Notes: generated by a model from the letters alone, not told the origin. Shown: positions 40,545-59,093, numbered from the stretch's first letter. The stretch: 64,000 nt of DNA from an uncultured Candidatus Saccharibacteria bacterium (GCA_964636285.1 CAZWQF010000004.1:67666-131665), one strand, 5' to 3'. Program-made: numbers and translations.

Positions 40545-41618
40545 TTAAAACCTACCCGCTGCTACTACAGTGAGTACGTCTGTGTAATCTGTGGCTGCTG
40601 CTGTAACGGCTGAGATTGTGGCTCTTGCAGTAAGCGTGAGCACATCACCATCAGTGGTTCCATTTGACCTTGCAATTGGCTGAAAGTTTGTTGAAAGTGT
40701 ACCACCACCTGATGCAGTTCCTACATACTCTGCACCATAACCTGCTGGCTGTGATACAGTACCGTCTCCTGTAGCACTGTCTGTTGTTATATCAACATCA
40801 AGGACGTAGCCATTAGTGCCTGTAGACAAAACTGAAGGTGTGTCATCAACTGAGCCTGTTGTTCCAATTGTTTCACCTGTAATGGTGGAGGAAAGACCAA
40901 CGTTTGCACTTCTAACCCAAGCTATCCAACCATTTTGAGCATTTGTTGCCATTGTTGCTGTTCTGCCGTTTGTAGAGACCACGGCGGATGATGAGAGGTT
41001 GGATGTGAACGTATCGGTACTATTACTCAATGAGAAAGAGAACGTAGATGGTACTGTAGCTGTTATAGTAATCTGATCACTTGACACCGTGGCTGTTGCC
41101 CAAGTTGACTGATCAATTGTTGCCGCTGCACCTGTCCTTGTAGTAATGGTGCCTGTTCTATCTGAACCTGTTGTCCCTGGGTTTGTAAGTGTAGAAGTTC
41201 CAGTAAAATTAAAACAATAGGTTGTACCTACGGAAAGTTCACCACTTGGGAAGGTAACTACATTTCCTGTAACATCTGTAGCAGTTCCAATACCTACCCA
41301 GGCAGAAGTACCTGAAGGTAAGTCTGTAGTAGTAACTGTCCAGTTAGTATCAGTAGGGTTGACTGTAAAAGACGCCGGAAACTCAACTTGAACATCGGCT
41401 TCAGTATTTGCTGTATTAGGCCTTGCACAAACTGTCCCACCTGTGGCCTGTGAGGTATTCATCCTGTCTAGTCTTACATATGCTTCTTGAAAGATTGCGT
41501 GTGAATCATTTGAAAGCCATCCAAAATAATATGATGTAGAAAGCATTAAACCGGCAATAATTGGGGCGACCTTTAGGGAATTTTTTAAAATTTGTTTTTT
41601 GGTGCAGGTATTTCTCAT
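40545..41618 (-). CDS. Secreted Thr/Ser-rich surface protein
   Basis: Signal/TM at the N-terminus, T/S/G-rich beta repeats. C-terminus ...TDYTDVLTVVAAGRF is shared with the next gene. Confidence 0.55.
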   Translation of the reverse strand: MRNTCTKKQILKNSLKVAPIIAGLMLSTSYYFGWLSNDSHAIFQEAYVRLDRMNTSQATGGTVCARPNTANTEADVQVEFPASFTVNPTDTNWTVTTTDLPSGTSAWVGIGTATDVTGNVVTFPSGELSVGTTYCFNFTGTSTLTNPGTTGSDRTGTITTRTGAAATIDQSTWATATVSSDQITITATVPSTFSFSLSNSTDTFTSNLSSSAVVSTNGRTATMATNAQNGWIAWVRSANVGLSSTITGETIGTTGSVDDTPSVLSTGTNGYVLDVDITTDSATGDGTVSQPAGYGAEYVGTASGGGTLSTNFQPIARSNGTTDGDVLTLTARATISAVTAAATDYTDVLTVVAAGRF

Positions 41619-41735
41619 AGTTAAGAACTATCGTAAGCAGTTACAAACTTGTTGTCAACAACTTTGTAATAAATTTTGGAACATAGACAAATATCTATAC
41701 TCAAAAACCTTTAAACACCGCTGTAAAAGCAAATA

Positions 41736-42932: not shown

Positions 42933-43140
42933 AAGCCTATATTCTACTACATCTGTAAAGTAGAATTTTTACTACCAATACATAATAGCACATTGAGTTT
43001 TTTAACTCAGAACCCATAAAGATTAAAAGATTTATTGAGTACATTTAACTTATCAAAATTAAAGAAAGTGCGGGCTTTGCCCGCACTTCTTGGTTAACTC
43101 TTTAATAATCTTCATTATTTAATCACGATATTTTGATCAA

Positions 43141-43155
43141 TGCAACTTAGTTGCA
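43141..43155. promoter_or_regulatory. Perfect 15-bp palindrome TGCAACT-t-AGTTGCA overlapping the -35 region of the micro-ORF promoter (candidate operator)
   Basis: Palindrome read directly from the sequence. TTGCAC with a -10-like TATTAT/TATGTT lies downstream, ~60 nt upstream of the ATG at 43215. Confidence 0.45.
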
Positions 43156-43214
43156 CAGATTTATTATTTATGTTATCTTAGCAACACCGGAGACCCAACG
43201 AAAGGAGAAAAACC

Positions 43215-43292
43215 ATGACGCGCATCAATGTGTCGCAGTGCAAGAACTGCGGCGACTCCAGCTGCTCGGGCTGCGGTGGCGGCGATAACTAA
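43215..43292 (+). CDS. 25-aa Cys/Gly/Ser-rich micro-protein MTRINVSQCKNCGDSSCSGCGGGDN (two CxxC pairs)
   Basis: Strong SD AAAGGAG 7 nt upstream of the ATG. Codons are almost uniformly GC3-rich (acg cgc atc gtg tcg cag tgc ggc ...), unlike the flanking AT3-rich genes. A hairpin plus T-run lies downstream (43294-43376). Confidence 0.5.
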   Translation: MTRINVSQCKNCGDSSCSGCGGGDN

Positions 43293-43399
43293 GCCCCACA
43301 AGCGCTGAGCACTGCCTCACCCAACGCTATCTAAAGGATCACGGGATCAACAGGAATAGCATTGGGTGGGGCAAACTTTTTAAAACTAAAATAACTAGT

Positions 43400-44185
43400 A
43401 TGACTTCAAGCACGTTAAATCAAAAAAATATGATTCAGGAGTATGCAAACTATGTAGGTGCTGATGACCTATCGCCAAAAACAGTACAAAAAGGTGTGAA
43501 GATATATAACAAACTTTTAAAAGATCAAAGTCTAGTCAATGCTGGGATAAGCCTAAAAGCAGACTCCAAAATGCAGAACGCAATTCTATCAATTCTTACT
43601 GGAATGTCTGCTGAAACAGGAGCGAACAACGGATCATTTAATAACCTGACTCTTGAGCAAGTAAAACTTTTAAGCCGAGTAATTGAAAAGGAAACTGGGG
43701 GAAATTGTTACATCAACAGAGCTCAAGAAAAACCATACCTGGTCACTTATGCTATTAACACTGCAAGGTTTATAAAAACAATTAAAAGGTATCCAAACTA
43801 TTTTAAATTCTTAAACCAGTTTGCAGATAAGAAGCGGTACAGCCTAAGTCAATTCAGGACCTTTATTGATAGTTCGTCCTCAAAATGGTACGTGCATTTC
43901 AGAGAAAGAAACCAAAATAAGGAATCCTTAATTAGGTATGGCCTTCTGAGCGGCTACCCCCTCCAAGCTACAATTAGCTTTTTTGACATGGAATCCCTGC
44001 CTCACCACGTAGTTCAACTACCATTTGGGGGCTACATTGGATTTAATAAAGAAATTGACAATATTTTTGCAGAGAAGAGGTTTATCATGGTCAAGGATGC
44101 TTACAATTCATTTAGTGACACTTGGAACAAAGACCAAAAAACTCAATTGCATGATCTTCAGCCTCAAAACCGGAATTTACTTTAA
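43400..44185 (+). CDS. Hypothetical protein
   Basis: 261-aa ORF; its 3' end overlaps the convergent Fur-family gene by ~74 nt; no recognisable motif. Confidence 0.4.
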   Translation: MTSSTLNQKNMIQEYANYVGADDLSPKTVQKGVKIYNKLLKDQSLVNAGISLKADSKMQNAILSILTGMSAETGANNGSFNNLTLEQVKLLSRVIEKETGGNCYINRAQEKPYLVTYAINTARFIKTIKRYPNYFKFLNQFADKKRYSLSQFRTFIDSSSSKWYVHFRERNQNKESLIRYGLLSGYPLQATISFFDMESLPHHVVQLPFGGYIGFNKEIDNIFAEKRFIMVKDAYNSFSDTWNKDQKTQLHDLQPQNRNLL

Positions 44186-44576
44186 ACCCCTCTTCAAGGC
44201 CTTTGATACATTTTTCTAACTCCTCAGAATGAAAATCTAAAACACATCCGCAGCTTTTACACACCAAATGATGGTGATGCTCAAGAGAGGCAAGTTCGTA
44301 CATCTTTTTTTCGCCTGATAAAACCACCTCTTTTAGCACCCCTCTGGTCAAAAGCTTATCAATCTCTCTATAAACACTAGTCTTATTAATCTTTTTCCCG
44401 CTTTTGCTTAGTGCTTGCAGAATCTCAGAAGCCGAAACTGGTTTTCCTGAGGCTACAAATTTATATAGCACGTAACACCTTAATGATGAGTGATTTAGAC
44501 TACTTTCATTTAAGATACGCTGGATCTTTTTTTCAATTTGAGCTTTACTCGATTTTTGACTGACTTCATTTTTCAT
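44112..44576 (-). CDS. Fur-family metalloregulator (Fur/Zur/PerR)
   Basis: N-terminal wHTH and C-terminal metal site HHHHLVCKSCGCV...GLCSKCH, typical of Fur proteins. Confidence 0.8.
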   Translation of the reverse strand: MKNEVSQKSSKAQIEKKIQRILNESSLNHSSLRCYVLYKFVASGKPVSASEILQALSKSGKKINKTSVYREIDKLLTRGVLKEVVLSGEKKMYELASLEHHHHLVCKSCGCVLDFHSEELEKCIKGLEEGFKVNSGFEAEDHAIEFFGLCSKCH

Positions 44577-44612
44577 AGCAGCTCAGACTAAAACACAAAA
44601 GAGTACGAACAA

Positions 44613-45602
44613 CTACAACTTAATGTAGTACACTGACCGCCCTTTCCCATGAGGGGCAATAAGGCCCATATCTGCAAGTCTGGCAAGGTCTCTTGATGCA
44701 GTTATCTGTGAAACATTAAATTTTGACTGAACCATTCTATTTGTAACCGAAAGCCCAGGATCCTCAAAAAGCTTAAGAACTTTCTTTTGCCTCTCGTTTA
44801 AATCCCAAAACTCACCACCAGCACTTGAAATAGTCTCATCTTTGGCAATGTTTCTTAATGCCTTCTCTAGGCTCAAAGTCATGGAGTGTATAAAAAATTC
44901 AAGCCATTCGTTTAAGTTTCCACTTTTGAGCGCACTTTGTATCCCACCGGGCAAAATTGACGGGTTTGAAAGGAATTCTTCAATAACAAGAAGTCTTCTG
45001 ACATCGTAACCCTCTTTGTACAAGAAAATGTACGTTAGCAATAGGTTTATTCTGTTGCTAAGTTGACCGAATGGAGCCATGTTACCAAGGTAAATGTAAG
45101 ATACAGCAGATTTAACAACTGGATGGTCGTTGCCTGATTGAAGATACTTCAAAAGCCTCTCCAAGGACTTCTCAAAAATATCGTATTTAACAAAATCTTT
45201 CTTCTGATCTTTTGGAAGTAAGCTATTAAGCCTCTCAAACATCTGAAGGACGGTGGCTACAGTTACCTCGTTTTTGGATGCTTTCCAATCTAAAAAGATG
45301 TCAAAAAGCTCATCTTTGTAGGATTGAAGCAGGAAGACCTGAAGATTTAGTGCCTGATTTGAGCCGTTTTTTGAGTCCGCGCTCATCAAAATCTTTGCCA
45401 GCTTCTCTTTTGACTGGATGACCTGGTTCCCAGCTAAAACAGTGTCCATAGAAAAATACATCCTATCAAGCATAGCCTCCCAAGCTAATGAAGCTTCCAC
45501 TCTTGGGTTGATGTTTTTAGTCAAAATCTGGTTTTTTAGGCTGTCCAGCTCCTTAAGCTGTTCTTTAATCGAAGAATTGATGTTATAGGATAACGTTAAC
45601 AC
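44613..45602 (-). CDS. Fic-fold protein with degenerate active-site motif and C-terminal winged-helix domain
   Basis: HPVVKSAVSYIYLGNMAPFGQLSNRINLLLTYIFLYKEGY aligns with the Fic core HPxxxxAxxH....IHPFxDGNGRxGRLL. The catalytic His is replaced by Ala and the GNGR motif is absent. A C-terminal wHTH (SQITASRDLARLADMGLI) is present. Confidence 0.6.
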   Translation of the reverse strand: MLTLSYNINSSIKEQLKELDSLKNQILTKNINPRVEASLAWEAMLDRMYFSMDTVLAGNQVIQSKEKLAKILMSADSKNGSNQALNLQVFLLQSYKDELFDIFLDWKASKNEVTVATVLQMFERLNSLLPKDQKKDFVKYDIFEKSLERLLKYLQSGNDHPVVKSAVSYIYLGNMAPFGQLSNRINLLLTYIFLYKEGYDVRRLLVIEEFLSNPSILPGGIQSALKSGNLNEWLEFFIHSMTLSLEKALRNIAKDETISSAGGEFWDLNERQKKVLKLFEDPGLSVTNRMVQSKFNVSQITASRDLARLADMGLIAPHGKGRSVYYIKL

Positions 45603-45765: not shown

Positions 45766-48700
45766 ATGAGCCGAACTAAGCCTATTTATAGGCTACCACT
45801 GCCCAGTTTAATTACGAACACTCGTGCCCTTGCAGAAAAACACATAAAAGGGTTGGGGTCTTTTTATACAATTTTAGCCTCTGTAAGTTTATTTTTCCTT
45901 ATAGCTACAACCTTTATAGCTTTTAACACCTCCTTACTCCGTAGTGCTAACGCTGCTACTGGTATAAATAGGCAAATTTCCTTTCAAGGTAAGGTTGTAA
46001 ACATTAACGGCACAAATGTAACTAACGGAAACTATAATTTTGTCTTCCGAATATACACTGTAGATACTGGAGGGTCCCCAATCTGGACAGAAACCAGAAC
46101 AGGAGGAAATCAGCTAACAGTGACTGATGGTATTTTTAGAGCTAGCCTTGGCTCAGTAACATCTCTCCCAGGCTCAATAGACTTTAACACCGACAATATT
46201 TACCTAAGCGTTGAGTTCAACACAACCGATGGCACAAACGAAATGAGTCCTAGAATTCGTTTTTCTGCTGTCCCGTACGCTATCAACGCTGAAAAAGTCT
46301 CAGGACTGACCGTAACAAACACAACAGGTACTTTAACGATTCCAAACTCAAAGACCCTTTCGATTGCAGACGATTTTTCAACGTCTGGTGCATTTGGACT
46401 AACTTTAACCACCACTGCATCTACCAATGTAACCCTACCCACTACAGGGACGCTTTCAACGCTTGCAGGCACTGAGATTCTTACAAATAAATCCATAGGG
46501 TCAACAGGACTAGTATTCTCTGGAGCTACTACGGATATAACTACAGCAACTGATGAGGACTTCACTGTGACCGTCAACGGAACTGGAGATTACATAATAA
46601 ACACGGATGCAGACACCCAGTTTAGACTTGCTGGGCTTGCTAACTGCGACAGCATTGACACTGACGCAAGTGGAAATCTTGCTTGCGGAACTGATGCAGG
46701 AGCCTCATCTTCCCCATTTAATACTGCAGTCGGCGTTATTGATAAGGCAACACTTGGAGATAGATTAAGGCTTAGATACGGAGATGTGGCGGACACACAG
46801 CTTGAGATCGAAAACACATTCCTTGGGTCTGCTCCAACAGCAGATGCAATGGTGATTGACCTTACAGGAGGCGCATCGGGTATTGTAACAAACGGGGTTG
46901 ATGCTCTTTCTATTTCAGCCGAATTTGGAAACGGAACTTCAAGCACAAATTCAGGTTTAAATATAATAATCACGCCTGTTGGATCCCCAACCGGCGACGA
47001 AACATTTTACGGATTGAACATTGCAACTTTAACCGGTACAAGCGCAACAGAAACAGCGGTAAACATTGGTGCGGGCTGGGACACTGGAATTAATTTAAAC
47101 GCTAATACACTTGTAAATATTGGTGATTCAGGTACAGACTTTACCCCAACTGGCGGGCTAACACTGGCCGGAGCTCTTCAGATTAACAACACCATAAATG
47201 CAACCGGAACCGCAACATTTGACGGGACTTTAGACGCCAACGGAATTTTTACTTTAGGCGATGGGGCCGAAATCGGCACAATTGACACTTCCGACTGGGA
47301 TATATCACTTACAGGAGACTTAACAGGTATCAGCTTTGACGCTAACGGAACAGGAAACTCAATCACAAACATTGAGTCAGCGGACATTCTTGATGGTACT
47401 ATTGCTCCTACAGACCTTAATCTAACAACTTCCGACTCCCCTAACGATGAGGACTGTCTAACTTTTGAAAATTCGACTACAGACTTTGAATGGCAAACAT
47501 GCCAGGTTTCCTGGAATAATTTAACAGCCCCTTCCGACAATCTTTCATTATCAATGGCTTCAAATACAACAACTTTTACATGGGGTAATGCAACAGGAGC
47601 CAGCGATATGTTCACTCTAACAGACACTACAAATAATACCGGAACTGGAGCAGTATTTAGTGTTAGCACTGCATCAGGCTCAACTGCTACACCTTTTGAG
47701 GTTTCAGCTCAAGGAAACCCTGCAATAACCGTGAGCAGTAGAGCAAATGTGGGAATTAAAAACATAAATCCACAAGAAGCTCTTGAGGTTGGAAATGACA
47801 CAACTAGAGCTAATATGAAAATATATGGGGACATACTTAAAGATGGATATATTGATTCTACAGGTTTAGCAAATGTTACTGATGTTTTTATTTACGACAC
47901 AACAAGAGACAGCGATGGAGGAGCATGGACTAATGGAACAATAGCTCAAGGACTTTCCTGGTATACCGAGACAAAAGATAATACAAGTACAGCATGCAGT
48001 ATCACAACTGATGATAGATGCGGTAGAAGCGAATTCCCAAAAAAAGCCTTAATTATTTCAACACCAAGCGCCGCATACATCTTTGATGCAAGAGATAATA
48101 CAATGTGGATGAAATTCAACCAGAATTCTGCTGGCTACGCTATTGGGGTGGATACAAACAACAACCCGACCGGAGTATTTGCGCTAAATGGGACCGTTTA
48201 CATTGGAATGAATGGTAGCGCTGCTAGCGGTCTGTACGCTATTAATTTTACAAATGACACTCTACTTAATTACGACTCAGTTGATAGAACCCAGGGAGAT
48301 AAAAACATTGCAAACAGGAATTCTGCAGTGAGCTACGCCACTAATGCTAATACAGCTTTTTCAATCACAGACAACATTGTAAATGATGTACATGGTGCGG
48401 TAATTTTTGGATCCACCACTGCGGGTAGCCCTCTGAATGGAGGTACCTTTATTGCGGCCGCAACAGACTCGGGCACCGCTGTAATAAACTTAACTGCTGG
48501 AAGAGTAATACGGTATGCAGGTACAACAATCACAAATGATATAAATCAGGTTTGGTTAACACGAAGAGGAAGGCTTTACCAGACAAATGAAGCGTTGTTA
48601 CAGGTTGAAAGATTTAATGATATAGAAGCTGATACAGCAAACCAAACTTCAGCAGACGATATTTATGACGAACAGTCAGCAAATGTACCTCACTTGGCAA

Positions 48701-51700
48701 AAACAGCTCCAACTATTTCCACATCTCCGGGCGCACTCTTTGTTCTTGAGAGAGCGTCAGTAGTAGATGATCAAGGAGATGTTCTGTACGTTGGACATTC
48801 GTTGGGATTGTCCGAACTACACCTTGGAAATACAGTATCCGCAACTGCAGTAGGATGGGCAAAATACTACACAATAGACGGTTCTTATCAGTACCTATCC
48901 GGAAACATAAGGGGAGCTTTTGCTATGAATGGGGCTTCAGGAGATATTACGGATCTTTCAATGAGAAATAATGTTCTGGATGTTAAAAACTCCCCTACTT
49001 ATGGTGTTGCAGGAGTACGCGGAAAAGCTATGTCATTTAATGGGACCAACCAGTATGCGTGTTCGGACACCAATAACGACGGCACTTGCGATCTGGATGC
49101 AGATTTCAGCCCTGCGGCTGTTTCATTTCATATTGAAGCCTGGTTCAAACACTCAACGGCTATATCAGGGACTGACGTTCTCATTGACCACACCTATACC
49201 ACAGCGCCAGCATACGCTGGAGGCTATAGAATTTTCATGAATGCATCAGGACAGATGGTATTTGGAATAGACGATGATGCTACTGCGTGGGGAGATGATG
49301 ATGTTGTGACATCTACCCAAACATATAACGATAATCAGTGGCACCACCTTGTTGCTGTAAACACAGACACTGGAATTTGTTTGTACATAGATGGCAAGCT
49401 GGCCGTAGCTTGTGACACCTCTTTACTTGCTACTGCCACACTTACAATTGCAAATGTGGTGCTTGGAGTTGGTGCTGATTGTTCTGTAGGGGCAAACTGC
49501 TCCACAGGCGCAAACTTTTGGACTGGGGAAATTGATGATGTAAACATATCTATGGGCGGATCCACAACATCGGATTCACTAACACAAGCACAAGTCAGGA
49601 AAAAATATCTTGAGGGCAGAGCAGCGCTATCTAGACCCCTGGTACAGGTTACGGATGCAACAACGGCTTCTTCTACAACTATTGGAGATTCAGCAGAAAC
49701 CTGGATTCCAAATCAGCTCTCAGGTTCTGTAGTTGAGATCACTCAAGGCACGGGAGTTGGTCAAACAAGGAGAGTTGTCTCAAATACGGCTACTACACTT
49801 ACAGTCACACCTGCATTTACAACCACACCAGATACCACCTCTGATTTTGAAATCGTACCCGAACAGCTCTACGGAGCAACAAACACAGTTACTTCGATTG
49901 CAGTTCAGGATACTGACGTGCTTGGGTACGGAAAGACACTAATGGTTGGAACAAATAATGGTTCAGACGGTGGAGGTGTGACGATATTTGGTGGACAAGG
50001 CCATGCATATATCACGGATGTTTACCACGCAGATGCAGGAAAAACCGATGATAATGCCGCAACATATTCCGGAACAGACTACGACGATATAACTGCTGTA
50101 GCTGCTAAGTCAGGGGTAAGGGTTGTAGGTAATCTGGCTGGGTTCTGGACAGAAACAGATAACAAAGAATACGAAGCAAACATAGACAGAATTATGAATG
50201 AGATTACAAACATGAAGCAGGAACTTCTGGTTGATGGTATTACGGGTACATCAACAGAGACCGGACTTATGGGAGGAGCGGATCTTGCTGAGTACTACTA
50301 CTCCACCGAGCTACTTGAGGCAGGAGAAGTTGTGGCAATAGATAAAACTTTGAATGCAGGAGTTAAAAGATCCAGCACAGCCTACCAAACTGATGTAATA
50401 GGCATTGTTGCTACGTACCCAGGAATTATTCTTGGCACTAAAACTGATAATTCATTTCCTATCGCTTTATCTGGAAGAGTGCCAGTAAAAGTGAGTATTG
50501 AGAACGGTATAATTTTGGCAGGAGATAGATTAACAGCGTCAAGTGTACCAGGGCATGCTATGAGAACAGATACTGCAGGTAGAGTTATAGGGGTTGCAAT
50601 TGAAGACATGAGCCTTGATTCTCTTAGTGCCTGCGTGGATAACAACGGCCAGCCAATTACAAACTCGCAAGGTGAGGTCAAAAAGTGCGGAACAATAACA
50701 GCTTTTGTAAACCTTTCGGATTACAATAAAAATTCAGACGACACATTACTTAGTAGCTGGTACCAACAGCAAGCTGCAACTGAGCTCTACACAAAACTTT
50801 ACGAATCAGAGAGCGCAAATCAGGAGAGTACAGAATCAGCAACAATTCAAAGCTGTATTGACAACAACTGCACAGATAACGCGCTAGCAAGGCAAAGAAC
50901 AAAAGTTAAAGAGATACTTTCTATACTCAAAAATGCCAGTGAGGCCGGTGAGAAAGAAGGAACCATGTCTGCTCTCACAAAGCTACCTGAACTGCTAGCC
51001 AAAAAAATAACTGCAAGTCAAGAAATTATCACTCCTCTACTCTCTTCGCTTGTTGTGAACTCTGAAGAAGTAAACTCGGTAAAAATTAAGTCTGACTACT
51101 TGGAGGCTGGTTCACTTAAAACAGATTCGATTCAAGCAAATAATAAGGACATTAAGATCAACGTAGCCGAGGATGGAAAGGTGATTCTTTTTGGCACTGA
51201 TTCAAATGGCAAACCAAAAGACATTATCACTTTTGATCAATATGGAAACGCAAGTTTTAACGGCGACATAACCGCTGGAACAATCACCGCCGACAAAATC
51301 AAAGCAAATCAGATAGAAGGCATGGAGATTGTTACGGACAAGCTATCTTCGATCTCCAAAGAGCTCTCAGTGCTCTCAAAACAGTCCTCAGAGAGCGCTT
51401 TTATTAATCCTGAAGATCCTGAGGGAACTCTAATAAAAGGCATCAAGATAGGCGCCCTAGAGGCTCAGACGGCCAAGGTTATAGACATCACTGCTCTTGG
51501 AAAGATGTTCGTTAAAAAATCTTTGACTGTGGATGGACCTGCAACGTTTAAGGCAAATACTTTCTTTGAAAAACTTGCCGTCTTTATTAACAAAGTAATC
51601 TTTAAAAACGAAGTAATTTTTGAACAAGTTCCTACTTTCAACAGCGATACAGCAGGCTTTGCAATTATTAAGGAAGGTGACGATAGAGTAAGAATCAAGT

Positions 51701-52224
51701 TTGAGAAGGAATATAAAGATTTGCCGGTTGTTAACGCCTCTATTGCTTTATATAAGGACGACGATGGCAAAGAGAAAGACCAGGAATTTAAAGATAGACA
51801 GGATAGGGTTTTGGATCACGAATACCCATACATTGTGAGCGAACTTTCAACTGAAGGATTCACAATTATCTTGGGCAAAGAGGCAAAGGAATCAATCAAC
51901 TTTAGCTGGGTGGCATTTGCGGTTAAAGACGCAGTAACAGCAGGCGAAGAAAAAAAGGTCAAAGATCAGGTTGAGAGGCTCTTAAATCCAGACTTTGTGA
52001 AGAAGGCACAGGAGAATGAAGACAAAGAGAATAAAGATGAAAATAAAAACGAAGTAAAAGAAGAAAAGAAAGAGGAGCCTGTAAAAGATGAGCTCAAAAA
52101 TGAGAATTCAGATTCTGGTTCTTCAAGCTCTGTGTTAGGAGCAAGCACAAACTCAAATTTTGTGGAGACTTTGTTTAACACCGGATTATCCGGCGGGAAA
52201 GAAAGCTCAAGTTCGGCAAGGTAA
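45766..52224 (+). CDS. Giant (2152 aa) secreted/anchored surface protein, paralog of the 16-kb gene, with LamG/concanavalin-like lectin domain
   Basis: Short cytoplasmic N-terminus plus TM (FYTILASVSLFFLIATTFIAF), no HTH. Shares the NLNANTLVNIG...DTSDWDISLTGDLT module with the 16-kb gene. LamG-like region ~48980-49460 (MSFNGTNQYA...NQWHHLVAVNTDTGICLYIDGKL). ALSGRVPVKVS module ~50260-50620, then coiled-coil and a K/E-rich tail. Confidence 0.85.
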   Translation: MSRTKPIYRLPLPSLITNTRALAEKHIKGLGSFYTILASVSLFFLIATTFIAFNTSLLRSANAATGINRQISFQGKVVNINGTNVTNGNYNFVFRIYTVDTGGSPIWTETRTGGNQLTVTDGIFRASLGSVTSLPGSIDFNTDNIYLSVEFNTTDGTNEMSPRIRFSAVPYAINAEKVSGLTVTNTTGTLTIPNSKTLSIADDFSTSGAFGLTLTTTASTNVTLPTTGTLSTLAGTEILTNKSIGSTGLVFSGATTDITTATDEDFTVTVNGTGDYIINTDADTQFRLAGLANCDSIDTDASGNLACGTDAGASSSPFNTAVGVIDKATLGDRLRLRYGDVADTQLEIENTFLGSAPTADAMVIDLTGGASGIVTNGVDALSISAEFGNGTSSTNSGLNIIITPVGSPTGDETFYGLNIATLTGTSATETAVNIGAGWDTGINLNANTLVNIGDSGTDFTPTGGLTLAGALQINNTINATGTATFDGTLDANGIFTLGDGAEIGTIDTSDWDISLTGDLTGISFDANGTGNSITNIESADILDGTIAPTDLNLTTSDSPNDEDCLTFENSTTDFEWQTCQVSWNNLTAPSDNLSLSMASNTTTFTWGNATGASDMFTLTDTTNNTGTGAVFSVSTASGSTATPFEVSAQGNPAITVSSRANVGIKNINPQEALEVGNDTTRANMKIYGDILKDGYIDSTGLANVTDVFIYDTTRDSDGGAWTNGTIAQGLSWYTETKDNTSTACSITTDDRCGRSEFPKKALIISTPSAAYIFDARDNTMWMKFNQNSAGYAIGVDTNNNPTGVFALNGTVYIGMNGSAASGLYAINFTNDTLLNYDSVDRTQGDKNIANRNSAVSYATNANTAFSITDNIVNDVHGAVIFGSTTAGSPLNGGTFIAAATDSGTAVINLTAGRVIRYAGTTITNDINQVWLTRRGRLYQTNEALLQVERFNDIEADTANQTSADDIYDEQSANVPHLAKTAPTISTSPGALFVLERASVVDDQGDVLYVGHSLGLSELHLGNTVSATAVGWAKYYTIDGSYQYLSGNIRGAFAMNGASGDITDLSMRNNVLDVKNSPTYGVAGVRGKAMSFNGTNQYACSDTNNDGTCDLDADFSPAAVSFHIEAWFKHSTAISGTDVLIDHTYTTAPAYAGGYRIFMNASGQMVFGIDDDATAWGDDDVVTSTQTYNDNQWHHLVAVNTDTGICLYIDGKLAVACDTSLLATATLTIANVVLGVGADCSVGANCSTGANFWTGEIDDVNISMGGSTTSDSLTQAQVRKKYLEGRAALSRPLVQVTDATTASSTTIGDSAETWIPNQLSGSVVEITQGTGVGQTRRVVSNTATTLTVTPAFTTTPDTTSDFEIVPEQLYGATNTVTSIAVQDTDVLGYGKTLMVGTNNGSDGGGVTIFGGQGHAYITDVYHADAGKTDDNAATYSGTDYDDITAVAAKSGVRVVGNLAGFWTETDNKEYEANIDRIMNEITNMKQELLVDGITGTSTETGLMGGADLAEYYYSTELLEAGEVVAIDKTLNAGVKRSSTAYQTDVIGIVATYPGIILGTKTDNSFPIALSGRVPVKVSIENGIILAGDRLTASSVPGHAMRTDTAGRVIGVAIEDMSLDSLSACVDNNGQPITNSQGEVKKCGTITAFVNLSDYNKNSDDTLLSSWYQQQAATELYTKLYESESANQESTESATIQSCIDNNCTDNALARQRTKVKEILSILKNASEAGEKEGTMSALTKLPELLAKKITASQEIITPLLSSLVVNSEEVNSVKIKSDYLEAGSLKTDSIQANNKDIKINVAEDGKVILFGTDSNGKPKDIITFDQYGNASFNGDITAGTITADKIKANQIEGMEIVTDKLSSISKELSVLSKQSSESAFINPEDPEGTLIKGIKIGALEAQTAKVIDITALGKMFVKKSLTVDGPATFKANTFFEKLAVFINKVIFKNEVIFEQVPTFNSDTAGFAIIKEGDDRVRIKFEKEYKDLPVVNASIALYKDDDGKEKDQEFKDRQDRVLDHEYPYIVSELSTEGFTIILGKEAKESINFSWVAFAVKDAVTAGEEKKVKDQVERLLNPDFVKKAQENEDKENKDENKNEVKEEKKEEPVKDELKNENSDSGSSSSVLGASTNSNFVETLFNTGLSGGKESSSSAR

Positions 52225-52263: not shown

Positions 52264-52300
52264 AAGCGGCGGGTTCATCTACAACCTAACCCCGCCGCTT
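52264..52300. other. Strong 10-bp-stem hairpin after the giant gene
   Basis: AAGCGGCGGG-(17 nt)-CCCGCCGCTT, with an A-run on the plus side and no canonical U-run on either strand. Confidence 0.5.
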
Positions 52301-52559
52301 AAAAAATGTACAGACTTGGGAGTTTTGAAGTGTAAGGTTAAAAATTAAATTTGATATAAGTAAATTCCGCGGGTGCAAGTCAAAGTGTTTTAAACGCAAA
52401 ACAGCCCGGCCTCCACACTCATCATTCGTAACTTTCGTCACAAAATCAAAGTTTTGGATTCCGGGCTGTCACTAGCACCTAGGCTAGATTTTTGTCATTT
52501 TTACTCAGTCACTTGGGCGGAAGTGTGAGCTCGGATGACTTCCGATTTAGAGCAAGAGA

Positions 52560-53081
52560 TCAGGCGCGGGCGGATGTACGCATGGTACGATTCCGCTTGT
52601 TGACCGACTTCTTGCTTTTGCCGCCGCCCATCTGTGGACCACCCTGACCCCCGGTGCCCTTGGCTTTCTGGCACGCGGCGGCGCGGTTCTGCTGGCGGGC
52701 CTTGCGAGCGGCCTCTTTCTGGTTCCGAACACGATTCGCCTCGGCTTTATCCTGTTGCGAAGCGCCCTGCGTAGCGTATTGGACAAACGCCTTGGTGGCA
52801 AGTTCAACAGCGGTCTTGCGGTTGACGGCGGCGTTGCGATAGCCGATCCACTCTTCATTGGCAGCCTCTCGCGCCGCGTGGTAGCTAGCACAGGACTTGT
52901 CGCAGAAGCGGTGAACCACCTCATGAGAACCCTCTTGGACGGGGGGGAAAGACCACCCAGACAAGGAGGTACGCATGAGCACCGCAGGCGCAGCGCCCGA
53001 TCGGCTCGGGCTCCAGTTCCTTGATCGTAACCTTGCTCAAGCTCGACAAAGAAACTTCCGATGCAAAGTAGTGGGACATGA
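52560..53081 (-). pseudogene. Island ORF a: possibly frameshifted gene (basic, Gly-rich C-terminal tail) split at a G7/C7 homopolymer
   Basis: A 52-aa ORF with SD AAGGAGG (start ~53081, MSHYFASEV...) ends just upstream of the 140-aa frame 52560..52982 (…KTAVELATKAFVQYAT…KSKKSVNKRNRTMRTSARA). The frames change at the run GGGGGGG 52938-52944. Either a true pseudogene or a sequencing error. Confidence 0.35.
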
Positions 53082-53328
53082 CTGCCTCCTTGCCTTTTTA
53101 GGGCATGAAAAAAGAACGAAAATTGAGCCACTTCTAACAACTTCTTTGTTATAACAAAGCCGTCAAAAGCGGCCCAACTTCTCTTTTTGGGAGGACTGCC
53201 CTCCCCCATTCGGTTAATAGTATTGTTGAGATTTGAAAAGCGAATAGATACAAAAAAGGGGCGTCTGCCAGCGAATGCTACGGCATCTTTATTAGAAAAT
53301 TAAAACTAAATTGAAAACGCCTCCGAGT

Positions 53329-53484
53329 TGGGATGATACCAAGTTCGGAGGCGCCTATGAATGCAGTCCCTGATTTTATACCGGTTCGGGCTTGCTTGCC
53401 TTTCTCGCTAATACATAAAGGCAAACGAATTATTCCGGCAACCACGCCCGCGTTGTGCGAAGGTGGCTAATGAAGGGAAGGCAG
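53329..53484. repeat. Island intergenic repeat R2, copy a (hairpin plus conserved ~130-nt body)
   Basis: Hairpin GCCTCCGA-(loop)-TCGGAGGC. The body is shared with 55453-55622 through the conserved blocks TACCGGTTCGGG, AATTCCGGCAACCACG, GCGAAG-TGG-TAATGA and AGGCAG. Confidence 0.55.
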
Positions 53485-53876
53485 TCTATTTTTGCACAAC
53501 CCTTTTAACATGCATCAAATTTCTAATGTTGACCCGCTTACTGCGATAATCTGCAGAAAGCCCCGTTGTAGTTAGGTCTCATCTACGCCTGATGCAGGCG
53601 AGGCAGCTAGCAAGTTCCTAAGAACCTGTTTTGCCGGAGTACTCGACACCAGTTGACGATCAAACTGTCAACTAGTCGTTGTTCCACCCACTCATCCCCT
53701 TAACCGCGCCCTTTTCTCTGCGGGATAAATCATTACGGGGATTGCGGAAGCTCTCTGGACCCTTTCCATCTAGGAACCCAGTGCAGAAAGTGAGCTTCAT
53801 TCATTAAGCCCAGAACGTACCTGGACAGGATTTACTGATCGATGGGTTGATCAGCTGCACATCCTTTTTTCCAAGG

Positions 53877-54197
53877 CTATTTCGGAGTCGACGGCAACGG
53901 CAGGTAAAGCAGAAGGTATCCGCTAACCATACCAAAGTCGTACGTCAGAACCGAAAAGCGAGTGACCACCTCAGTTGCAGCCATGACCATGTCAGCTTGC
54001 AGAATCTGCATGCGCATGGGAACTTCAAGCTGCTTCTTGGTGGGCTTAATCGCAAGGACGTAAACATCCTTACTCGCTTTGCACCAAGCAAAGCGACCAC
54101 CAAGCCTCTCACGCAGCACCCTGGCATCCTCAAACTGCTTTCCAGGCTTTTTGTGCGTGAACTCGAGCTTGCCGATCTTGAAATCCTTGGGAGGCAT
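53877..54197 (-). CDS. Island ORF b: hypothetical 106-aa protein
   Basis: SD AAGGGGGT 7 nt upstream of ATG; protein-like composition. Confidence 0.5.
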   Translation of the reverse strand: MPPKDFKIGKLEFTHKKPGKQFEDARVLRERLGGRFAWCKASKDVYVLAIKPTKKQLEVPMRMQILQADMVMAATEVVTRFSVLTYDFGMVSGYLLLYLPLPSTPK

Positions 54198-54198
54198 G

Positions 54199-54405
54199 TT
54201 AATACCCCCTTCTGGATAAGAGCGAGCTCAAGAACAGGAGCCCCGCCCAAAACAACGCCACGGTGATACAAGCAAGAGGTACCGCTACCTCAAAGCTCAT
54301 ACCGTGACGGCTTGACGACAACATGGAGGCTGAAAAGACAACCACATTCACCGCCAAGACCAACATCGACGCCTTGACACGATCTTTCCAACTGTTTTTT
54401 CCCAT
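54199..54405 (-). CDS. Island ORF c: 68-aa two-TM membrane peptide (holin-like topology)
   Basis: Two hydrophobic helices and a charged C-terminus. SD AAAGGAAGG upstream. Ends 1 nt before ORF b. Confidence 0.4.
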   Translation of the reverse strand: MGKNSWKDRVKASMLVLAVNVVVFSASMLSSSRHGMSFEVAVPLACITVALFWAGLLFLSSLLSRRGY

Positions 54406-54849
54406 GGTAGGGAAACCTTCCTTTCGGAATACTCATAAACGCTGTTGGAAAGCGTTTCTGAGAGGTTTATCGGATTGAAGTACTTTGATAAACCCAAATA
54501 GAACAACTCGATTCTATTTGTTATCCTATTTTGATTTACCAAGTAGCTCTCAACTTTAGCCTGCTTTCGTCTTGCCTTTCGGAAGACTCATCAGTACCTC
54601 TTTGAGGTAAAGCAGGACAAGACACGCGTTCGATTTAAGATTTTAGAACATAGTGTACTAAAATCCCCTGCTTGGAGGTTTTGGCTATATCTCATGAACC
54701 AGCTTGCTTCCGCATCGGGTTTCTCTCCTCTGCAACAGGCTGCACGCTTCCTTCTCTAATTGCTTAGAGCTAGTACGCTATGACCTGCGCTTCAACGGGC
54801 GAGTGTCCCTACGGAGTTTTTAACTTAGGGCTAGCCATGAGATGCGATT

Positions 54850-55158
54850 TTAGGCGATTCGAGTTACAACTTTGGCCTTGAGCTGACTCACGTCAGAGAC
54901 CGCGGTGTGTACTGTCCATCCATTCTCACGCTTGTTCTGCGCAAGAGGAACGGCCAGGTAACTTTCGCCAATCTGCAGACCACCAAAAAGCTTGGAAGTC
55001 GCAGGCACTGCACCTAAAGCCTCAACGAGGCTCTTGGTATCCGGGTGTCCCACGTAATGCGGGGTGCCGGACAAGTCTTGCGGAAAGGCTACTTCTTTAC
55101 ATTCAAAAGTGCCTCCCGTAAGAACAGTGCTGGATAGAATCGCAACATACTTAGCCAT
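54850..55158 (-). CDS. Island ORF d: hypothetical 102-aa protein
   Basis: SD GGAGGTG 6 nt upstream of the ATG. Sequence MAKYVAILSSTVLTGGTFECKEV... Confidence 0.5.
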   Translation of the reverse strand: MAKYVAILSSTVLTGGTFECKEVAFPQDLSGTPHYVGHPDTKSLVEALGAVPATSKLFGGLQIGESYLAVPLAQNKRENGWTVHTAVSDVSQLKAKVVTRIA

Positions 55159-55384
55159 TTTTCACCTCCGTGTGGGCTGGCTAGCCCATGAAAATCCCCT
55201 ACCCGCTGGCTTTCGTTTTGGGTTACGCCTCTTTAATTACTTGAGGGAAAAACCTGCTAAAAATTCTATTACAGACTTTTCCCCCAAGTAATTATTGAGA
55301 ATATATCGAACTGCGTATCTTGCCACATAGGTTAATCTTTATTAATTTGTTGAAGATAACCTACAGAGAGAGTTGCTAAATTAG

Positions 55385-55448
55385 CTTCTTCCCTCGTTTA
55401 GCTAAAGAAACACCTACCAAGCCTTCTTTAGCTAAATGAAGAAAGAGT
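55385..55448. repeat. Island repeat R1, copy a (hairpin-containing ~64-bp direct repeat)
   Basis: ~94% identical to 56036-56099. Internal hairpin TAGCTAAAGAA-(14 nt)-TTCTTTAGCTA. Confidence 0.7.
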
Positions 55449-55452
55449 TTGT

Positions 55453-55622
55453 TTAAGCGCCCCTCAGGTTATACCACTATTGGGGCGCTTAAGGATGAAC
55501 TCGTTCTATACCCTAGTTTTACACCGGTTCGGGTCATCTATGCCAGCAAATGATGATCGAACAATAAATTCCGGCAACCACGTTCGCCTAAGCGAAGATG
55601 GGTTAGTGATGCGCTAGGCAGG
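55453..55622. repeat. Island repeat R2, copy b
   Basis: 11-bp-stem hairpin TTAAGCGCCCC-(loop)-GGGGCGCTTAA, then a body homologous to 53353-53484. Confidence 0.55.
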
Positions 55623-55952
55623 AATCAAATCCCCCCAACTCCAGCTAGAAAAGTCGGGACCATACTCCCACACCACATTCTCAAGCTGGAATTCCCACTC
55701 TCCTTGGAGCCGCCAAGCATGGATGTGCTCACATAGAATGTCGGCGGGCTCATCGTCCTCGTGCACCTCGCTCGGAAGGTGGGCAGTGCATGGCCATTTG
55801 GACGTCCCAGGATCCACAGGCTCAATCATGAACCAGTTGGCCTCTCCAAACACTGCTCTAAAAGACCTGCGCTCCAGCGTCCCCTCACAGTACACGCCTC
55901 GCGATATTTGGGTATCGTAAGGTTCCCACATTGAGATATAAACCTGAAGCAT
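55614..55952 (-). CDS. Island ORF e: hypothetical 112-aa acidic protein
   Basis: SD AAAGGAG ~8 nt upstream of the ATG. Trp/Glu-rich (…EHIHAWRLQGEWEFQLENVVWEYGPDFSSWSW). Confidence 0.5.
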   Translation of the reverse strand: MLQVYISMWEPYDTQISRGVYCEGTLERRSFRAVFGEANWFMIEPVDPGTSKWPCTAHLPSEVHEDDEPADILCEHIHAWRLQGEWEFQLENVVWEYGPDFSSWSWGDLIPA

Positions 55953-56035
55953 TTAGCACTACTCCTTTCTTGGAGTTACAACCGTTATCCCGTGCTTGGA
56001 TAATGGAGGTTAGTTAGAGAAAAGAACTCTGGAAA

Positions 56036-56099
56036 CTTCTTCCCTCGTTCAGTTAAAGAAACACCTACCAAGCTTTCTTTAGCTAAATGAAGAAAGAGT
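56036..56099. repeat. Island repeat R1, copy b
   Basis: Direct repeat of 55385-55448, upstream of ORF e and adjacent to the right island border. Confidence 0.7.
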
Positions 56100-56375
56100 G
56101 TGCACGCCCGGCCTGACTTATATCCAATTCACGAAATTTTATTTACTAGAGTAAAACCAAAAAAGCCGAGGCTTTTGAGAAACCACTTTCTCCAAAATCT
56201 CGGCCTTTCCAAACTTAGAATATCACCTAGGTAATAGTTTGAGAGGTAGGTTTTGGTAGGTTTCACCTATAATCTCTTACATGACAATTATATCCTATAG
56301 TATATAATAGGTCAACAGTGACCGCTTTGAACAAGTAGTCTTACATTCAATTTTTAAAACTTGTAGTATTAGGAC

Positions 56376-59093
56376 ATGTCTAAGTACTCACCTACTCAGG
56401 ACGACTTGGAATCCGATCAGAGTATAAAAATTGAAGAACAAAGAGCTACAATCGAATCTGTAGAAAAAATCCTAGTATTACTTGAAAATTTTGAGTTTGA
56501 GGAAGCCATGTATCTCAAGGAGGAAATCCTTCAAACTCCAAGTGATGACATCACAGAGATCCTTAGATCAGATGAGGAGCTTAGGCAGCGTGTGCTTGAC
56601 ACCATAAATCTCTACGCAACTAAATATTCAGCTAAAAAGTATTTACTAAACGAGGAACATTTGGAAACCTACGTGAAAACCAGGAATTTGATAAAGATTT
56701 TTGGAGTTGCACCAGATATGTATCCTGAAAGTATTGAGAATGCGATGGTGAGAACAATAAAAGCACTCTCGGTACATGATGGCTTTGCAACAACATTAGG
56801 AAGGTGTGAGGAACTCCATCTAGAAAGGGCACCGCATGTTTATGACACAGTCAGAAAAACACTTTATGAGTGCGCAGTGGAACAACCAATAATCTATGGC
56901 TCGTCTGATGAAGCTTTCATGTATACAAGATGTATTGAAATAATGGCCAATTTATATGAATACAAGGATGAAGAGATATCAAACCTACTTACAGAAGCGT
57001 TTATACATCCACTAGATGACTATGCAAACTGGTCTCGTGAAACTCGTATTGTAATGAGCGCAGTAGAGTACTTTGGCGTAGCTGATCCCGTTTATTCAAA
57101 TCCAGAGGTAATAAGCCACGTTAGAGATAAATTCGTATACTTTATAGAAAGTGACACAACAGGAATTCCAGAATACATAGCTGAAAAGTGCGCGGTACAG
57201 CTGGATGTTCAAGCTCCAGAATACCCACATGGCATGACGTATGCAGACTTAATTAAAGTAAGAGGCTCCGATGAGGCGGCAGGTAAATGGAACCTTAAAA
57301 GGATGCGTGGGTTAACCTATCTTGTGAAATCAGATGCGCTGCAAATTATTGCAGCACAAGGAGACGGGGCTTCTCATTACTTCCATGAGATTTCAAAAGG
57401 TATCCCCTCTTCTAATCAAGTAGAGCGAGAAGAAATAGAATTTTATGTTTATATTGCTAAAAAGTATGGGGTGCAGGCTAGATCGGTATTGGTAAATCTT
57501 GTAAACCGAAAAGGTACTGACATAGCAGATCAAAAAGCTGATATAGACATTTATATGGCATCTGTCGGAGTACCAGATCAAAAGCTTCTCGATGAATTCA
57601 AACATACGGAACAAGACCCAATAGCGCGAGAGGCGTTAGTAAGTAGGGTTAATACAATGAAAAAAGGGGCAATTGATGCAGATTCAGATTCGCTATGGCA
57701 ACCGGGTGGAGTAGCAGTTTTATATAGTGTTTTTCCTCCAACCTCTTCGGTAACATCTGCAGAATATCAAAGAATGTTATCTAACAGATGTGACTACAGT
57801 TTAGATGCAAATTTATCAAACATAAATAATAGGAGAGTAAGAGTACCTACGGGTAGATTAATGTTTGAATCCGGGGCAGAACTTGACAGAGACCTCTGGG
57901 ACTTGATTAACAACGCGATTGAAAATGCTAATACAAACCCGGCAGGATCGATAGATTCAAATGCAATTGCATTAAAACTTATTAAATCTGCCGTTTCTGG
58001 ACAGGAAGCCGATCAAGACTTGATAGAGCTTTTATACAGATTTCATTTACAAAGCGGTGGCGCTAAAGTGGAGCCAGCTGAAGACTCCTCTTATCAATCA
58101 TTAGCAAGGCTCTCTGAGTTTGTGAGAACAGAGATTGCTGGAAAATATATCCCGCAGGTACTCCAAACTTATTCACAAGAACATGCCGAGGAGTGGGCAC
58201 AGATAGAATCAGAGCTATTTAACAGAGTTAAAAAAACTAGGGAAAAGGATTTTGCTAGAGTTAAGAGTCTAATGCTAGGGTTAAAAAAATCAAAAAACCC
58301 TAGCGATGCTGAAAGATCTACTCAGATGCTACAGGAGACCCTGGAAAAATACGCATTATCTATTGCTGAGGCACAGATAATGGATGAAGATAGATTAAAA
58401 TCAATGATTGAAGCAGTCCCAGTGACTGAAGATGAAGATATACAGAGATCCGAGGACTACTACAACTCCCCTGAATTTCACAGGGCTTTAGATAAATTTG
58501 AAGAAAAGTACGATAGAAATAAGCTGGCTATAGGTAAGATCAGAGATCAGGCGATGAACCCTTTAATTAGATCCATGAACACAGAACTTGGAAAATTTAC
58601 TACCGAAGGTGATATAGAGGAGGAATCCAGAGAATTAGAATTAATTATAACCAAAAAACATGCTCACTCTATTGCAGGTTTCAATATGGGCGTGTGCACC
58701 GTGATTGATGAAGACCTGTGGGACAACCCAAACTTTATGAATTGCATCCTAGTAGATAGGGACAGAAACCTTGGGTTAGGTGGCATGCACTTGTTTGTCG
58801 CTGGTGGATACCTCACACTTCCAGGAATAAATCCATCAAATGAAGCGTTATCCAACGTAGAGTTAGGCAACCTAACGGATCAGATGCTTGAGTACTCTAA
58901 AGAAGTTGCTCGAGCCCTAAATTTAAGGGGAGTGCTTATACCCACCGACAAGTATATCGCTTCGAACAGGTCTAGGGTTTACTCATATCTGGAGGATCAA
59001 AAGTGGCCAAAGCTGAGATTACCAGCCCCAGTACACTTTGCAACAGTTGGTAACACATCTTACGAAATTAGAGACTGCTGGGTAGTTAAATAA
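56376..59093 (+). CDS. Large (905 aa) hypothetical cytoplasmic protein, mostly alpha-helical, with possible Cys/His C-terminal domain
   Basis: AT-rich, host-like codon usage. No signal peptide. C-terminal segment IAGFNMGVCTVIDEDLWDNPNF...LGLGGMHLFVAGGYLTLPG has a conserved-looking Cys/His pair. Confidence 0.5.
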   Translation: MSKYSPTQDDLESDQSIKIEEQRATIESVEKILVLLENFEFEEAMYLKEEILQTPSDDITEILRSDEELRQRVLDTINLYATKYSAKKYLLNEEHLETYVKTRNLIKIFGVAPDMYPESIENAMVRTIKALSVHDGFATTLGRCEELHLERAPHVYDTVRKTLYECAVEQPIIYGSSDEAFMYTRCIEIMANLYEYKDEEISNLLTEAFIHPLDDYANWSRETRIVMSAVEYFGVADPVYSNPEVISHVRDKFVYFIESDTTGIPEYIAEKCAVQLDVQAPEYPHGMTYADLIKVRGSDEAAGKWNLKRMRGLTYLVKSDALQIIAAQGDGASHYFHEISKGIPSSNQVEREEIEFYVYIAKKYGVQARSVLVNLVNRKGTDIADQKADIDIYMASVGVPDQKLLDEFKHTEQDPIAREALVSRVNTMKKGAIDADSDSLWQPGGVAVLYSVFPPTSSVTSAEYQRMLSNRCDYSLDANLSNINNRRVRVPTGRLMFESGAELDRDLWDLINNAIENANTNPAGSIDSNAIALKLIKSAVSGQEADQDLIELLYRFHLQSGGAKVEPAEDSSYQSLARLSEFVRTEIAGKYIPQVLQTYSQEHAEEWAQIESELFNRVKKTREKDFARVKSLMLGLKKSKNPSDAERSTQMLQETLEKYALSIAEAQIMDEDRLKSMIEAVPVTEDEDIQRSEDYYNSPEFHRALDKFEEKYDRNKLAIGKIRDQAMNPLIRSMNTELGKFTTEGDIEEESRELELIITKKHAHSIAGFNMGVCTVIDEDLWDNPNFMNCILVDRDRNLGLGGMHLFVAGGYLTLPGINPSNEALSNVELGNLTDQMLEYSKEVARALNLRGVLIPTDKYIASNRSRVYSYLEDQKWPKLRLPAPVHFATVGNTSYEIRDCWVVK

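Follow-up and report, generated by a model that had tools for sequence, protein, structure and literature searches.

A small gene islet of foreign composition with a divergent DUF1874 protein and a candidate hammerhead ribozyme in a Patescibacteria chromosome

Cyclic tetra-adenylate (cA4) is the second messenger issued by Cas10 of type III CRISPR systems, and the ring nucleases AcrIII-1 and Crn2 that cleave it belong to DUF1874 (PF08960). The duf1874 gene of Thermoanaerobacterium phage THSA-485A abolishes cA4-dependent type III CRISPR immunity and has been shown by experiment to be an anti-CRISPR, and in the DUF1874 protein gp29 of SIRV1 the general acid, His47, is absolutely conserved (Athukoralage et al., 10.1101/778746). 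Bacterial hammerhead ribozymes often flank individual genes or short groups of them in prophages, ardA included, and have been proposed to process transcripts (Perreault et al. 2011, PMC3088659). Here we describe an islet (52401..56114, minus strand) in which a divergent DUF1874 gene is followed by a candidate hammerhead; it lies in a 64,000-nucleotide stretch of DNA, hereafter the window, from an uncultured Candidatus Saccharibacteria bacterium (GCA_964636285.1, CAZWQF010000004.1:67666-131665). The islet would comprise three transcription units and is an outlier in GC content, in GC content at third codon positions (GC3) and in tetranucleotide usage. We lean towards reading it as a small, non-autonomous, laterally acquired islet of accessory genes in a Patescibacteria (candidate phyla radiation, CPR) chromosome, most likely derived from a phage or other mobile element. 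Its identifiable parts, the AcrIII-1/Crn2-like gene and the hammerhead, are such as the accessory regions of phages and other mobile elements are seen to carry; they add a further case to kinds already described and do not amount to a system of a new kind, and the rest of the islet is an ordinary cluster of laterally acquired genes that lack known relatives.

A preliminary, sequence-only reading of this DNA recognised no known family in any of the islet's open reading frames (ORFs), which proved wrong for ORF b (55158-54850, minus strand; 102 amino acids (aa)), a protein with the DUF1874 (B116-like) fold of AcrIII-1/Crn2. Its tabulated matches, with their scores, were 8y7g_B (Marinitoga Csx1-Crn2; 7.7), 2j6c_A (AFV3-109; 7.3), 8y7f_B (Csx1-Crn2 without the CARF domain; 7.1) and 2j85_B (STIV B116; 5.9), and a Foldseek comparison with viral models placed the THSA-485A protein first, a protein of Stygiolobus rod-shaped virus second and STIV B116 seventh. 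Profile-profile alignment of the ORF b family by hhalign to a reference set of eight DUF1874 proteins, from archaeal viruses and THSA-485A, gave a probability of 70% and an E-value of 4e-5 over 63 columns. In both hhalign runs the invariant V-G-H38-P-x-T of the family aligned, with moderate alignment confidence, to I-G-H47-D-S-T, and R77..G80 aligned to the RLxEG loop; H38 was invariant across 25 homologues. By analogy with AcrIII-1/Crn2, ORF b would cleave cA4, and such cleavage would shut off the effectors activated by cyclic oligoadenylate (cOA).

The homologues of ORF b comprise 42 proteins at 45-76% identity, found in Patescibacteria metagenome-assembled genomes (MAGs), a viral contig and cultured phages. 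The viral homologue is carried on a 53-kb contig, an IMG/VR-listed viral genome that also encodes DNA polymerase A, PDDEXK and DUF932 proteins, and 41% matches were found in two cultured phages of Firmicutes, Moorella phage MTATph1 and Parageobacillus phage JGon-2020a. This distribution lends no support to the actinobacterial donor suggested earlier; no donor of the islet was identified, and its DNA matched no phage or plasmid record. Activity of ORF b, if present, would suggest that cOA signalling is of importance to CPR bacteria or to the phages that infect them; a full-text literature search found no paper pairing 'Patescibacteria' with 'ring nuclease'.

The second identifiable part, a candidate type III hammerhead ribozyme with the cleavage triplet CUU (54617-54559, minus strand), begins 233 nt after the ORF b stop codon. 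It reads CCUGC-U-U / UACCUC-AAA-GAGGUA / CUGAUGA / GUCUUCC-GAAA-GGCAAGAC / GAAA / GCAGG, and every core position (CUGAUGA, GAAA, CUU) fits the type III consensus, with the core CUGANGA ... GAAA, U16.1-H17 at the cleavage site and the A15.1-U16.1 pair. The minimum-energy fold is a three-way junction; its stems I and II are closed, with 6 bp in the first and 7 bp and a bulge in the second, and its open stem III consists of 5 bp and a further 3. A descriptor consisting of the core and three stems of at least 4 bp gave a single match in the window and none in 300 dinucleotide-shuffled windows. No second hammerhead core was present on either strand of the islet, descriptor scans of related loci detected no hammerhead near ORF b homologues elsewhere, and an Rfam search at permissive E-values returned the hammerhead together with spurious microRNA or snoRNA matches and no other ribozyme class. 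The candidate may cleave itself. It would then cut the b-c-d transcript 233 nt past ORF b, yielding a b mRNA that ends in a 2',3'-cyclic phosphate and a c-d mRNA that starts with a 5'-OH.

Like the hammerheads that flank prophage genes (PMC3088659), such as that of ardA in Agrobacterium tumefaciens, the candidate is intergenic, lies on the sense strand of small accessory genes and stands beside a gene of anti-defence type. Unlike those, it is single, with no flanking pair or triple, has CUU in place of the common GUC, scores below the Rfam threshold, and has no integrase or prophage body nearby. It adds another hammerhead beside an anti-defence-type gene and supports the idea that such ribozymes process transcripts of the accessory genes that mobile elements carry. 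A direct repeat of 17 nt, ATGAGTNTTCCGAAAGG (minus strand), occurs both within the hammerhead core and stem II (54575-54591) and directly upstream of the ribosome-binding site of ORF c (54420-54436); it could be the remnant of a second ribozyme or an element for alternative pairing.

The composition of the islet sets it apart from the rest of the window. GC content is 49.4% in 52404-56114 against 41.3% elsewhere, the highest of any 3.7-kb stretch and about 3.8 standard deviations over the sliding-window mean. The sequence-only reading described a rise to ~58-60% across the whole island, of which it stands that this is the most GC-rich stretch of the window; the profile oscillates, reaching 60-62% only in 52500-53100 (ORF e), with 51-54% in the other ORFs and 40-46%, as in the host, in the spacers. 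The codon usage, described there as GC3-rich and unlike that of the host, is so: GC3 is 0.50-0.70 in the islet ORFs and 0.27-0.44 in 28 host ORFs, all five islet ORFs falling outside the host range. The tetranucleotide signature, normalised for base composition, agrees that the segment is foreign, as it correlates with that of the rest of the window at r = 0.54, while other 3.7-kb windows have r = 0.81 +/- 0.035 and a minimum of 0.73, which places the islet about 8 standard deviations away. Shine-Dalgarno (SD) matches of at least 6 nt precede just 4 of the 187 start-like triplets on the minus strand of the islet, and three of these four are the starts of ORFs a, b and e1. Because SD sites stand at the called starts and GC3 lies outside the host range, we take the ORFs to be real genes with foreign codon usage.

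An assembly chimera, in which the DNA of a higher-GC organism was joined into a CPR contig, was the alternative first put forward for this abrupt change in composition, and it could also accommodate the four of five ORFs without known relatives (three of them searched for and one not). The Logan assembly of run SRR12762304, however, holds a 5350-bp contig identical to window positions 52278-57627, the homopolymer frameshift described below included. This contig spans the right junction by 1.5 kb and, on the left, reaches 126 bp beyond the border 9-mer and more than 120 bp past the GC transition. Because the contig is identical across 5350 bp, past both junctions, a chimera produced by a single assembler is unlikely, with the proviso that the Logan contig and the MAG may share the same reads. 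The spacers within the islet are host-like in GC, and related CPR genomes carry GC-rich ORF b homologues too; taken together, an artefact of this sort is highly improbable.

The position of ORF b bears on its mobility. A block of the window is syntenic with two Patescibacteria MAG contigs, L006 and L002, in which the ORF b homologue sits between WecG and glycogen synthase and not at the islet locus; in the window this slot is occupied by a 632-aa HTH_17 gene, and ORF b lies 20 kb away. Identity to the L006 counterparts is 71.6% for ORF b, 67% for MreB and 58% for glycogen synthase. The ORF b homologues lie 10-16 GC points above their own CPR hosts, and their GC content equals that of the viral contig. 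Mobility is favoured because the locus of ORF b differs, its identity exceeds that of MreB, and its GC content is above that of the CPR hosts and like that of the viral contig. Just after the stop codon of the homologues in L002 (641-700) and L006 (8289-8345) lies a shared motif, consisting of CTGAATNAGATTCGG, a hairpin and CAGAAT, that is absent from the window copy.

A number of results weigh against a laterally acquired islet with these two identifiable parts. ORF b falls short of the gathering score of Pfam PF08960, with no hit at E <= 1, and the model matches only one of 25 family members (E 0.023); SIRV1 gp29 itself scores 100.7 bits. As the Pfam model fails and fold and motif match, we assign ORF b to the DUF1874 superfamily as a divergent member, and regard it as a candidate cA4 ring nuclease. 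No cas domain was found among the approximately 20 window proteins scanned, so that a type III CRISPR target for ORF b is unsupported. The hammerhead candidate obtained 24.5 bits (E 0.06) with Rfam RF00008 (Hammerhead_3), under the gathering score of 48.5. No integrase, transposase, capsid or tail gene lies in or adjoining the islet, and its spacers have the GC content of the host. In the genome contigs searched, no empty site was found, the relatives of the flanking 905-aa protein there being only 24-27% identical and belonging to other phyla (Omnitrophota and Planctomycetales). Relatives of ORFs a, d and e were sought and not found. Finally, the identities of ORF b and of glycogen synthase covary in three genome pairs (77/67, 70.6/56.5 and 69.6/58), and the GC content of ORF b rises with that of its host; this tracking of the host fits long residence in the clade as well as it fits transfer.

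This tracking, of identity and of GC content, also favours a native, lineage-specific locus that was not recently transferred, whose atypical codon usage would come from, for example, high expression or amino-acid composition, and in which ORF b would be a long-resident cellular Crn2-like protein that was merely relocated. The host-like spacer GC agrees with such a locus, as does the occurrence of hairpin-rich long spacers both between host genes and beside the ORF b homologues of other CPR contigs. It is harder to reconcile with five ORFs that all lie beyond the GC3 range of 28 host genes, a normalised tetranucleotide signature about 8 standard deviations from that of other windows, the lack of homologues of ORFs a, d and e even in related MAGs, and an ORF b that is more conserved than MreB with respect to L006 and stands at a different locus. 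We consider a native origin of the islet unlikely. From the way its identity and GC content track the host, ORF b itself may have resided in the clade for a long time while moving locally. With their higher GC3 and lack of relatives, ORFs a, d and e look like newer arrivals than ORF b; ORF c has high GC3 too, and its relatives were never searched for.

Compared with described AcrIII-1/Crn2 proteins, ORF b is too divergent for the Pfam model, its clade occurs mostly in Patescibacteria MAGs, and no adjoining type III CRISPR genes were seen. A host-encoded 'Crn2' label requires association with CRISPR and is not supported, because no cas gene was seen in the window; output of Tandem Repeats Finder, which is not a dedicated CRISPR search, contained no CRISPR-like array. 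What ORF b adds is a divergent group of DUF1874 (AcrIII-1/Crn2-like) proteins, found chiefly in Patescibacteria, that escape the current models of Pfam, PHROG, NCBIfam and PADLOC.

Around ORF b, the laterally acquired islet we favour contains four further genes, all small and on the minus strand, as described earlier. ORF a (55952-55614) encodes an acidic protein of 112 aa (pI 4.3) with a 6-nt SD match and GC content of 0.58/0.43/0.61 at codon positions 1/2/3; ORF c (54405-54199) encodes a basic 68-aa protein with a 5-nt SD match and two hydropathy peaks, in keeping with the two-transmembrane (2-TM) peptide that had been predicted; and ORF d (54197-53877) encodes 106 aa after a 4-nt SD match. 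The fifth, ORF e, is described below. Each ORF does have an SD site, of 6 nt or more for a, b and e1, whereas the spacing of 450-650 bp throughout that accompanied this claim was inexact: the gaps from a to e are 455, 444, -1 and 797 bp. The -1 refers to ORFs c and d, which are translationally coupled, the TAA of c and the ATG of d being 1 nt apart. Nothing usable came from scanning every ORF, and also the fused ORF e, against Pfam, PHROG, PADLOC and NCBIfam; ORF c in particular had no family match in any of them, and no homologue search was made for it. A word-index search with ORF a among 5.8 billion proteins returned only the query itself, as did a word-index search with ORF d. A single-sequence AlphaFold2 model of ORF a was unusable (predicted local distance difference test score 39.6). 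By tblastn, ORFs a, c, d and e co-occurred with ORF b homologues at none of the loci of these homologues.

The arrangement of ORFs c and d invites comparison with a toxin-antitoxin, addiction or anti-phage defence cassette, in which the 2-TM ORF c might act as membrane toxin or holin and ORF d as its partner; the two are translationally coupled, c has two hydrophobic segments, and such systems typically consist of small genes that lie in islands and lack relatives. No ORF has a match in PADLOC, Pfam, NCBIfam or PHROG, and the sole identifiable gene has an anti-defence or signal-degrading fold, so the defence or addiction cassette proposed by the sequence-only reading finds no support: ORF b points to anti-defence or the removal of a signal, and we judge a cassette of this type quite improbable.

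ORF e (53079-52560, minus strand) is one gene in two frames, e1 (53079-52921) and e2 (52982-52560), broken by a +1 shift at a C7 run. This is the G7 homopolymer of the plus strand (52941-52947) at which a broken gene had been reported, and the run is identical in the Logan contig. e1 has a 7-nt SD match and the GTG start of e2 none, and GC3 is 0.68 in e1 and 0.70 in e2, each in its own frame. Removal of one C gives a fused product of 172 aa, and not a largest ORF of 185 aa as had been stated; its CxC...CxxxC cysteines span the break and its tail is strongly basic. An exhaustive HMMER search with e2 returned the query itself alone and no homologue. ORF e is either a pseudogene, a phase-variable gene or a gene with a programmed +1 shift at CCC-C. 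An alternative ORF of 220 aa (52547-53209) was rejected: it lacks an SD site, and its translation, rich in R, P, S and A, is typical of out-of-frame reading in GC-rich DNA.

Two families of hairpin-containing repeats, both noticed earlier, punctuate the islet. The two copies of repeat A are 67 nt long and 94% identical: copy 1 (56102-56036, minus strand), a hairpin of ~26 bp, lies 84 nt upstream of ORF a, and copy 2 (55451-55385, minus strand), a hairpin in the leader of ORF b, lies 227 nt upstream of that gene. Both copies retain the consensus hairpin, and two stem differences pair, as G-U, in the minus sense only. Repeat B consists of the conserved cores CGTGGTTGCCGGAAT and CCCGAACCGGTRTAAAA around a variable hairpin, of which three inner pairs are changed on both sides between copies. 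Copy 1 (55592-55505, minus strand; CGTGGTTGCCGGAAT, variable hairpin, CCCGAACCGGTGTAAAA) is located at the 3' end of the ORF a unit, and the b-c-d unit has copy 2 (53456-53362, minus strand) at its own 3' end. Among 18 sources (the window and 17 other loci), only the islet copies matched covariance models of A and B, and the patterns were absent from viral contigs and from phage and plasmid records. Thirteen metagenome matches to the B pattern all fell in GC-rich, coding-like DNA without the flanking conserved bases and were judged to be due to chance. A and B, each present in two copies, are possibly mRNA end-stabilisers, processing sites or operators.

Further hairpins stand where transcripts would begin and end. 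The hairpin after B1 (55455-55490, minus strand) aligns with the equivalent one after B2; its loop contains TGGTATAAC, which resembles an extended -10 element, and it could mark the end of unit 1 and the start of unit 2. The hairpin after B2 (53314-53355, minus strand) is a terminator with a T-run, and its loop holds a TG-extended -10 element (TATCAT) that may be the promoter of ORF e; a promoter scan reported TTCATA-17-TATCAT with TG at 53361-53333 of the minus strand. The leader of ORF b contains a hairpin of ~24 bp (55223..55304, minus strand), an inverted repeat present in the minimum-energy fold, for which Rfam gives only spurious, sub-threshold microRNA matches. A terminator-like hairpin after ORF e (52401..52469, minus strand) holds the left border 9-mer in its 3' arm and is followed by TTTTGCGTTT. 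On this layout, unit 1 would comprise leader hairpin A1, ORF a and module B1; unit 2, leader hairpin A2, ORF b, the hammerhead, ORFs c and d, module B2 and its terminator; and unit 3, the promoter in the loop of the B2-side terminator, the frameshifted ORF e and a terminator. Just upstream of the islet, at 56281-56315, lie two overlapping near-consensus sigma-70-type promoters (11/12 matches each), one per strand; ~80 nt after that of the minus strand comes a strong T-run terminator hairpin (56207-56160; fold z of the region -2.7), and 56155-56315 possibly gives rise to a transcript of ~120 nt, a small RNA or a leader.

The spacers were also described in the sequence-only reading as long and structured, and structured they are, with fold z-scores of -4.2, -5.4 and -6.7 against shuffled sequences. 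Part of this signal is DNA palindromy, because the opposite strands fold well too. It is also not specific to the islet, since some host intergenic regions are strongly folded (for example 42933-43399, z -6.9) and long spacers around the ORF b homologues in contigs L029, L002 and L006 have z-scores from -5.5 to -10.5; hairpin-rich long spacers are thus a wider trait of these genomes, perhaps a general one of their accessory regions, and not a mark of the islet. The region 42933-43399 is a divergent host intergenic region that has no sequence in common with the islet repeats. In L029 (a Logan contig of SRR14092381; 2940-9150), L002 (641-1099) and L006 (7553-7979), genes of unknown function are accompanied by structured spacers of 330-1200 bp.

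With its small ORFs in one orientation, foreign composition and hairpin repeats between genes, the islet resembles integron cassette arrays and clusters of attC sites lacking integrases (CALINs). It differs from them in having neither attC architecture nor an integrase, in lacking repeats at some cassette boundaries, and in its long, promoter-bearing spacers. The related proposals are an integron-like or other cassette array with A and B as recombination sites, or a non-autonomous transposon bounded by terminal inverted repeats and target-site duplications, and for these the borders are of interest. The 9-mer GCCCGGCCT, as had been noticed, occurs at both borders, at 52404 and 56106, and exactly twice in the window. 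The right copy (56106..56114, plus strand) lies between a -10-like TATAAG and repeat A1, and the left copy (52404-52412) belongs to the 3' arm of the terminator hairpin that follows ORF e (52401-52469). Just outside the 9-mers is a 14-nt inverted repeat, AATTTGATATAAGT / ACTTATATCCAATT (13/14 matching; 52348-52361 and 56116-56129), each arm of which holds an inward-facing, -10-like TATAAG; the inverted repeat may be due to chance.

These border signals carry little weight. We estimate that two zones of 150 bp share some 9-mer with a chance of ~1 in 10 and that the 9-mer and the 14-nt inverted repeat are each near chance expectation, inverted repeats of such length being expected by chance in 4 kb. 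There is no extended similarity around the two copies of GCCCGGCCT, and we therefore do not take the 9-mer for an extended att site. The direct repeat is present without a recombinase, and no close relative offers an empty site for comparison. The earlier reading of the 9-mer as an att core or target-site duplication is accordingly weak, the left copy being a terminator arm and integrase and transposase being absent. For a cassette array, A and B are present in just two copies each, and none stands after b, c-d or e in the way that attC sites would be expected to. The attC site has the architecture R''-L''...L'-R', with the core motifs RYYYAAC / GTTRRRY; repeat A carries GCTAAAC / GTTTAGC and, by inspection and not by systematic scan, does not fit these cores. 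Together with the confinement of A and B to the islet, where the metagenome matches to B look like chance, this makes either form of the proposal still more improbable than a toxin-antitoxin or defence cassette.

The laterally acquired islet that we favour has a closer likeness in phage morons and small genomic islets: its composition differs from that of the host, each unit has an apparent promoter and terminator of its own, and most of the genes lack known relatives. Unlike these, it stands in a chromosome without a recognisable prophage, combines an unusually low coding density with 450-800-bp spacers, and has its own duplicated 5' (A) and 3' (B) modules. A bolder reading would make the ORF b family an as yet unrecognised clade of cOA ring nucleases, widespread among Patescibacteria, missed by Pfam and travelling in hairpin-rich, ribozyme-processed mini-cassettes bounded by 5' A-type and 3' B-type modules. 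Episymbiotic CPR bacteria might then use it to silence their own cOA immune signalling or that of the host cell to which they are attached, which would make the islet an anti-defence cassette of a new type, small and mobile; we hold this to be doubtful, to about the same degree as the toxin-antitoxin or defence cassette.

The remainder of the window encodes, among others, two glycogen/starch synthases, GH57 enzymes, MreB, WecG, a PEGA protein, a sortase and two giant proteins. The giant ORFs are of 5417 aa (10165-26418) and 2152 aa (45766-52224), the latter of which begins with a hydrophobic segment at its N terminus and has a high content of T, S, G and N. Synteny with L006 stops at tRNA-Pro (38267-38342), which is followed by a block of ORFs (38346-45602) without confident Pfam matches. 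The 632-aa protein in the slot between WecG and glycogen synthase (32188-34086) has an N-terminal domain of HTH_17/MerR type, and its gene contains a GC-rich patch of 51-54%, especially at 32601-33300, inside which a 15-nt tandem repeat is found at 32784-32835.

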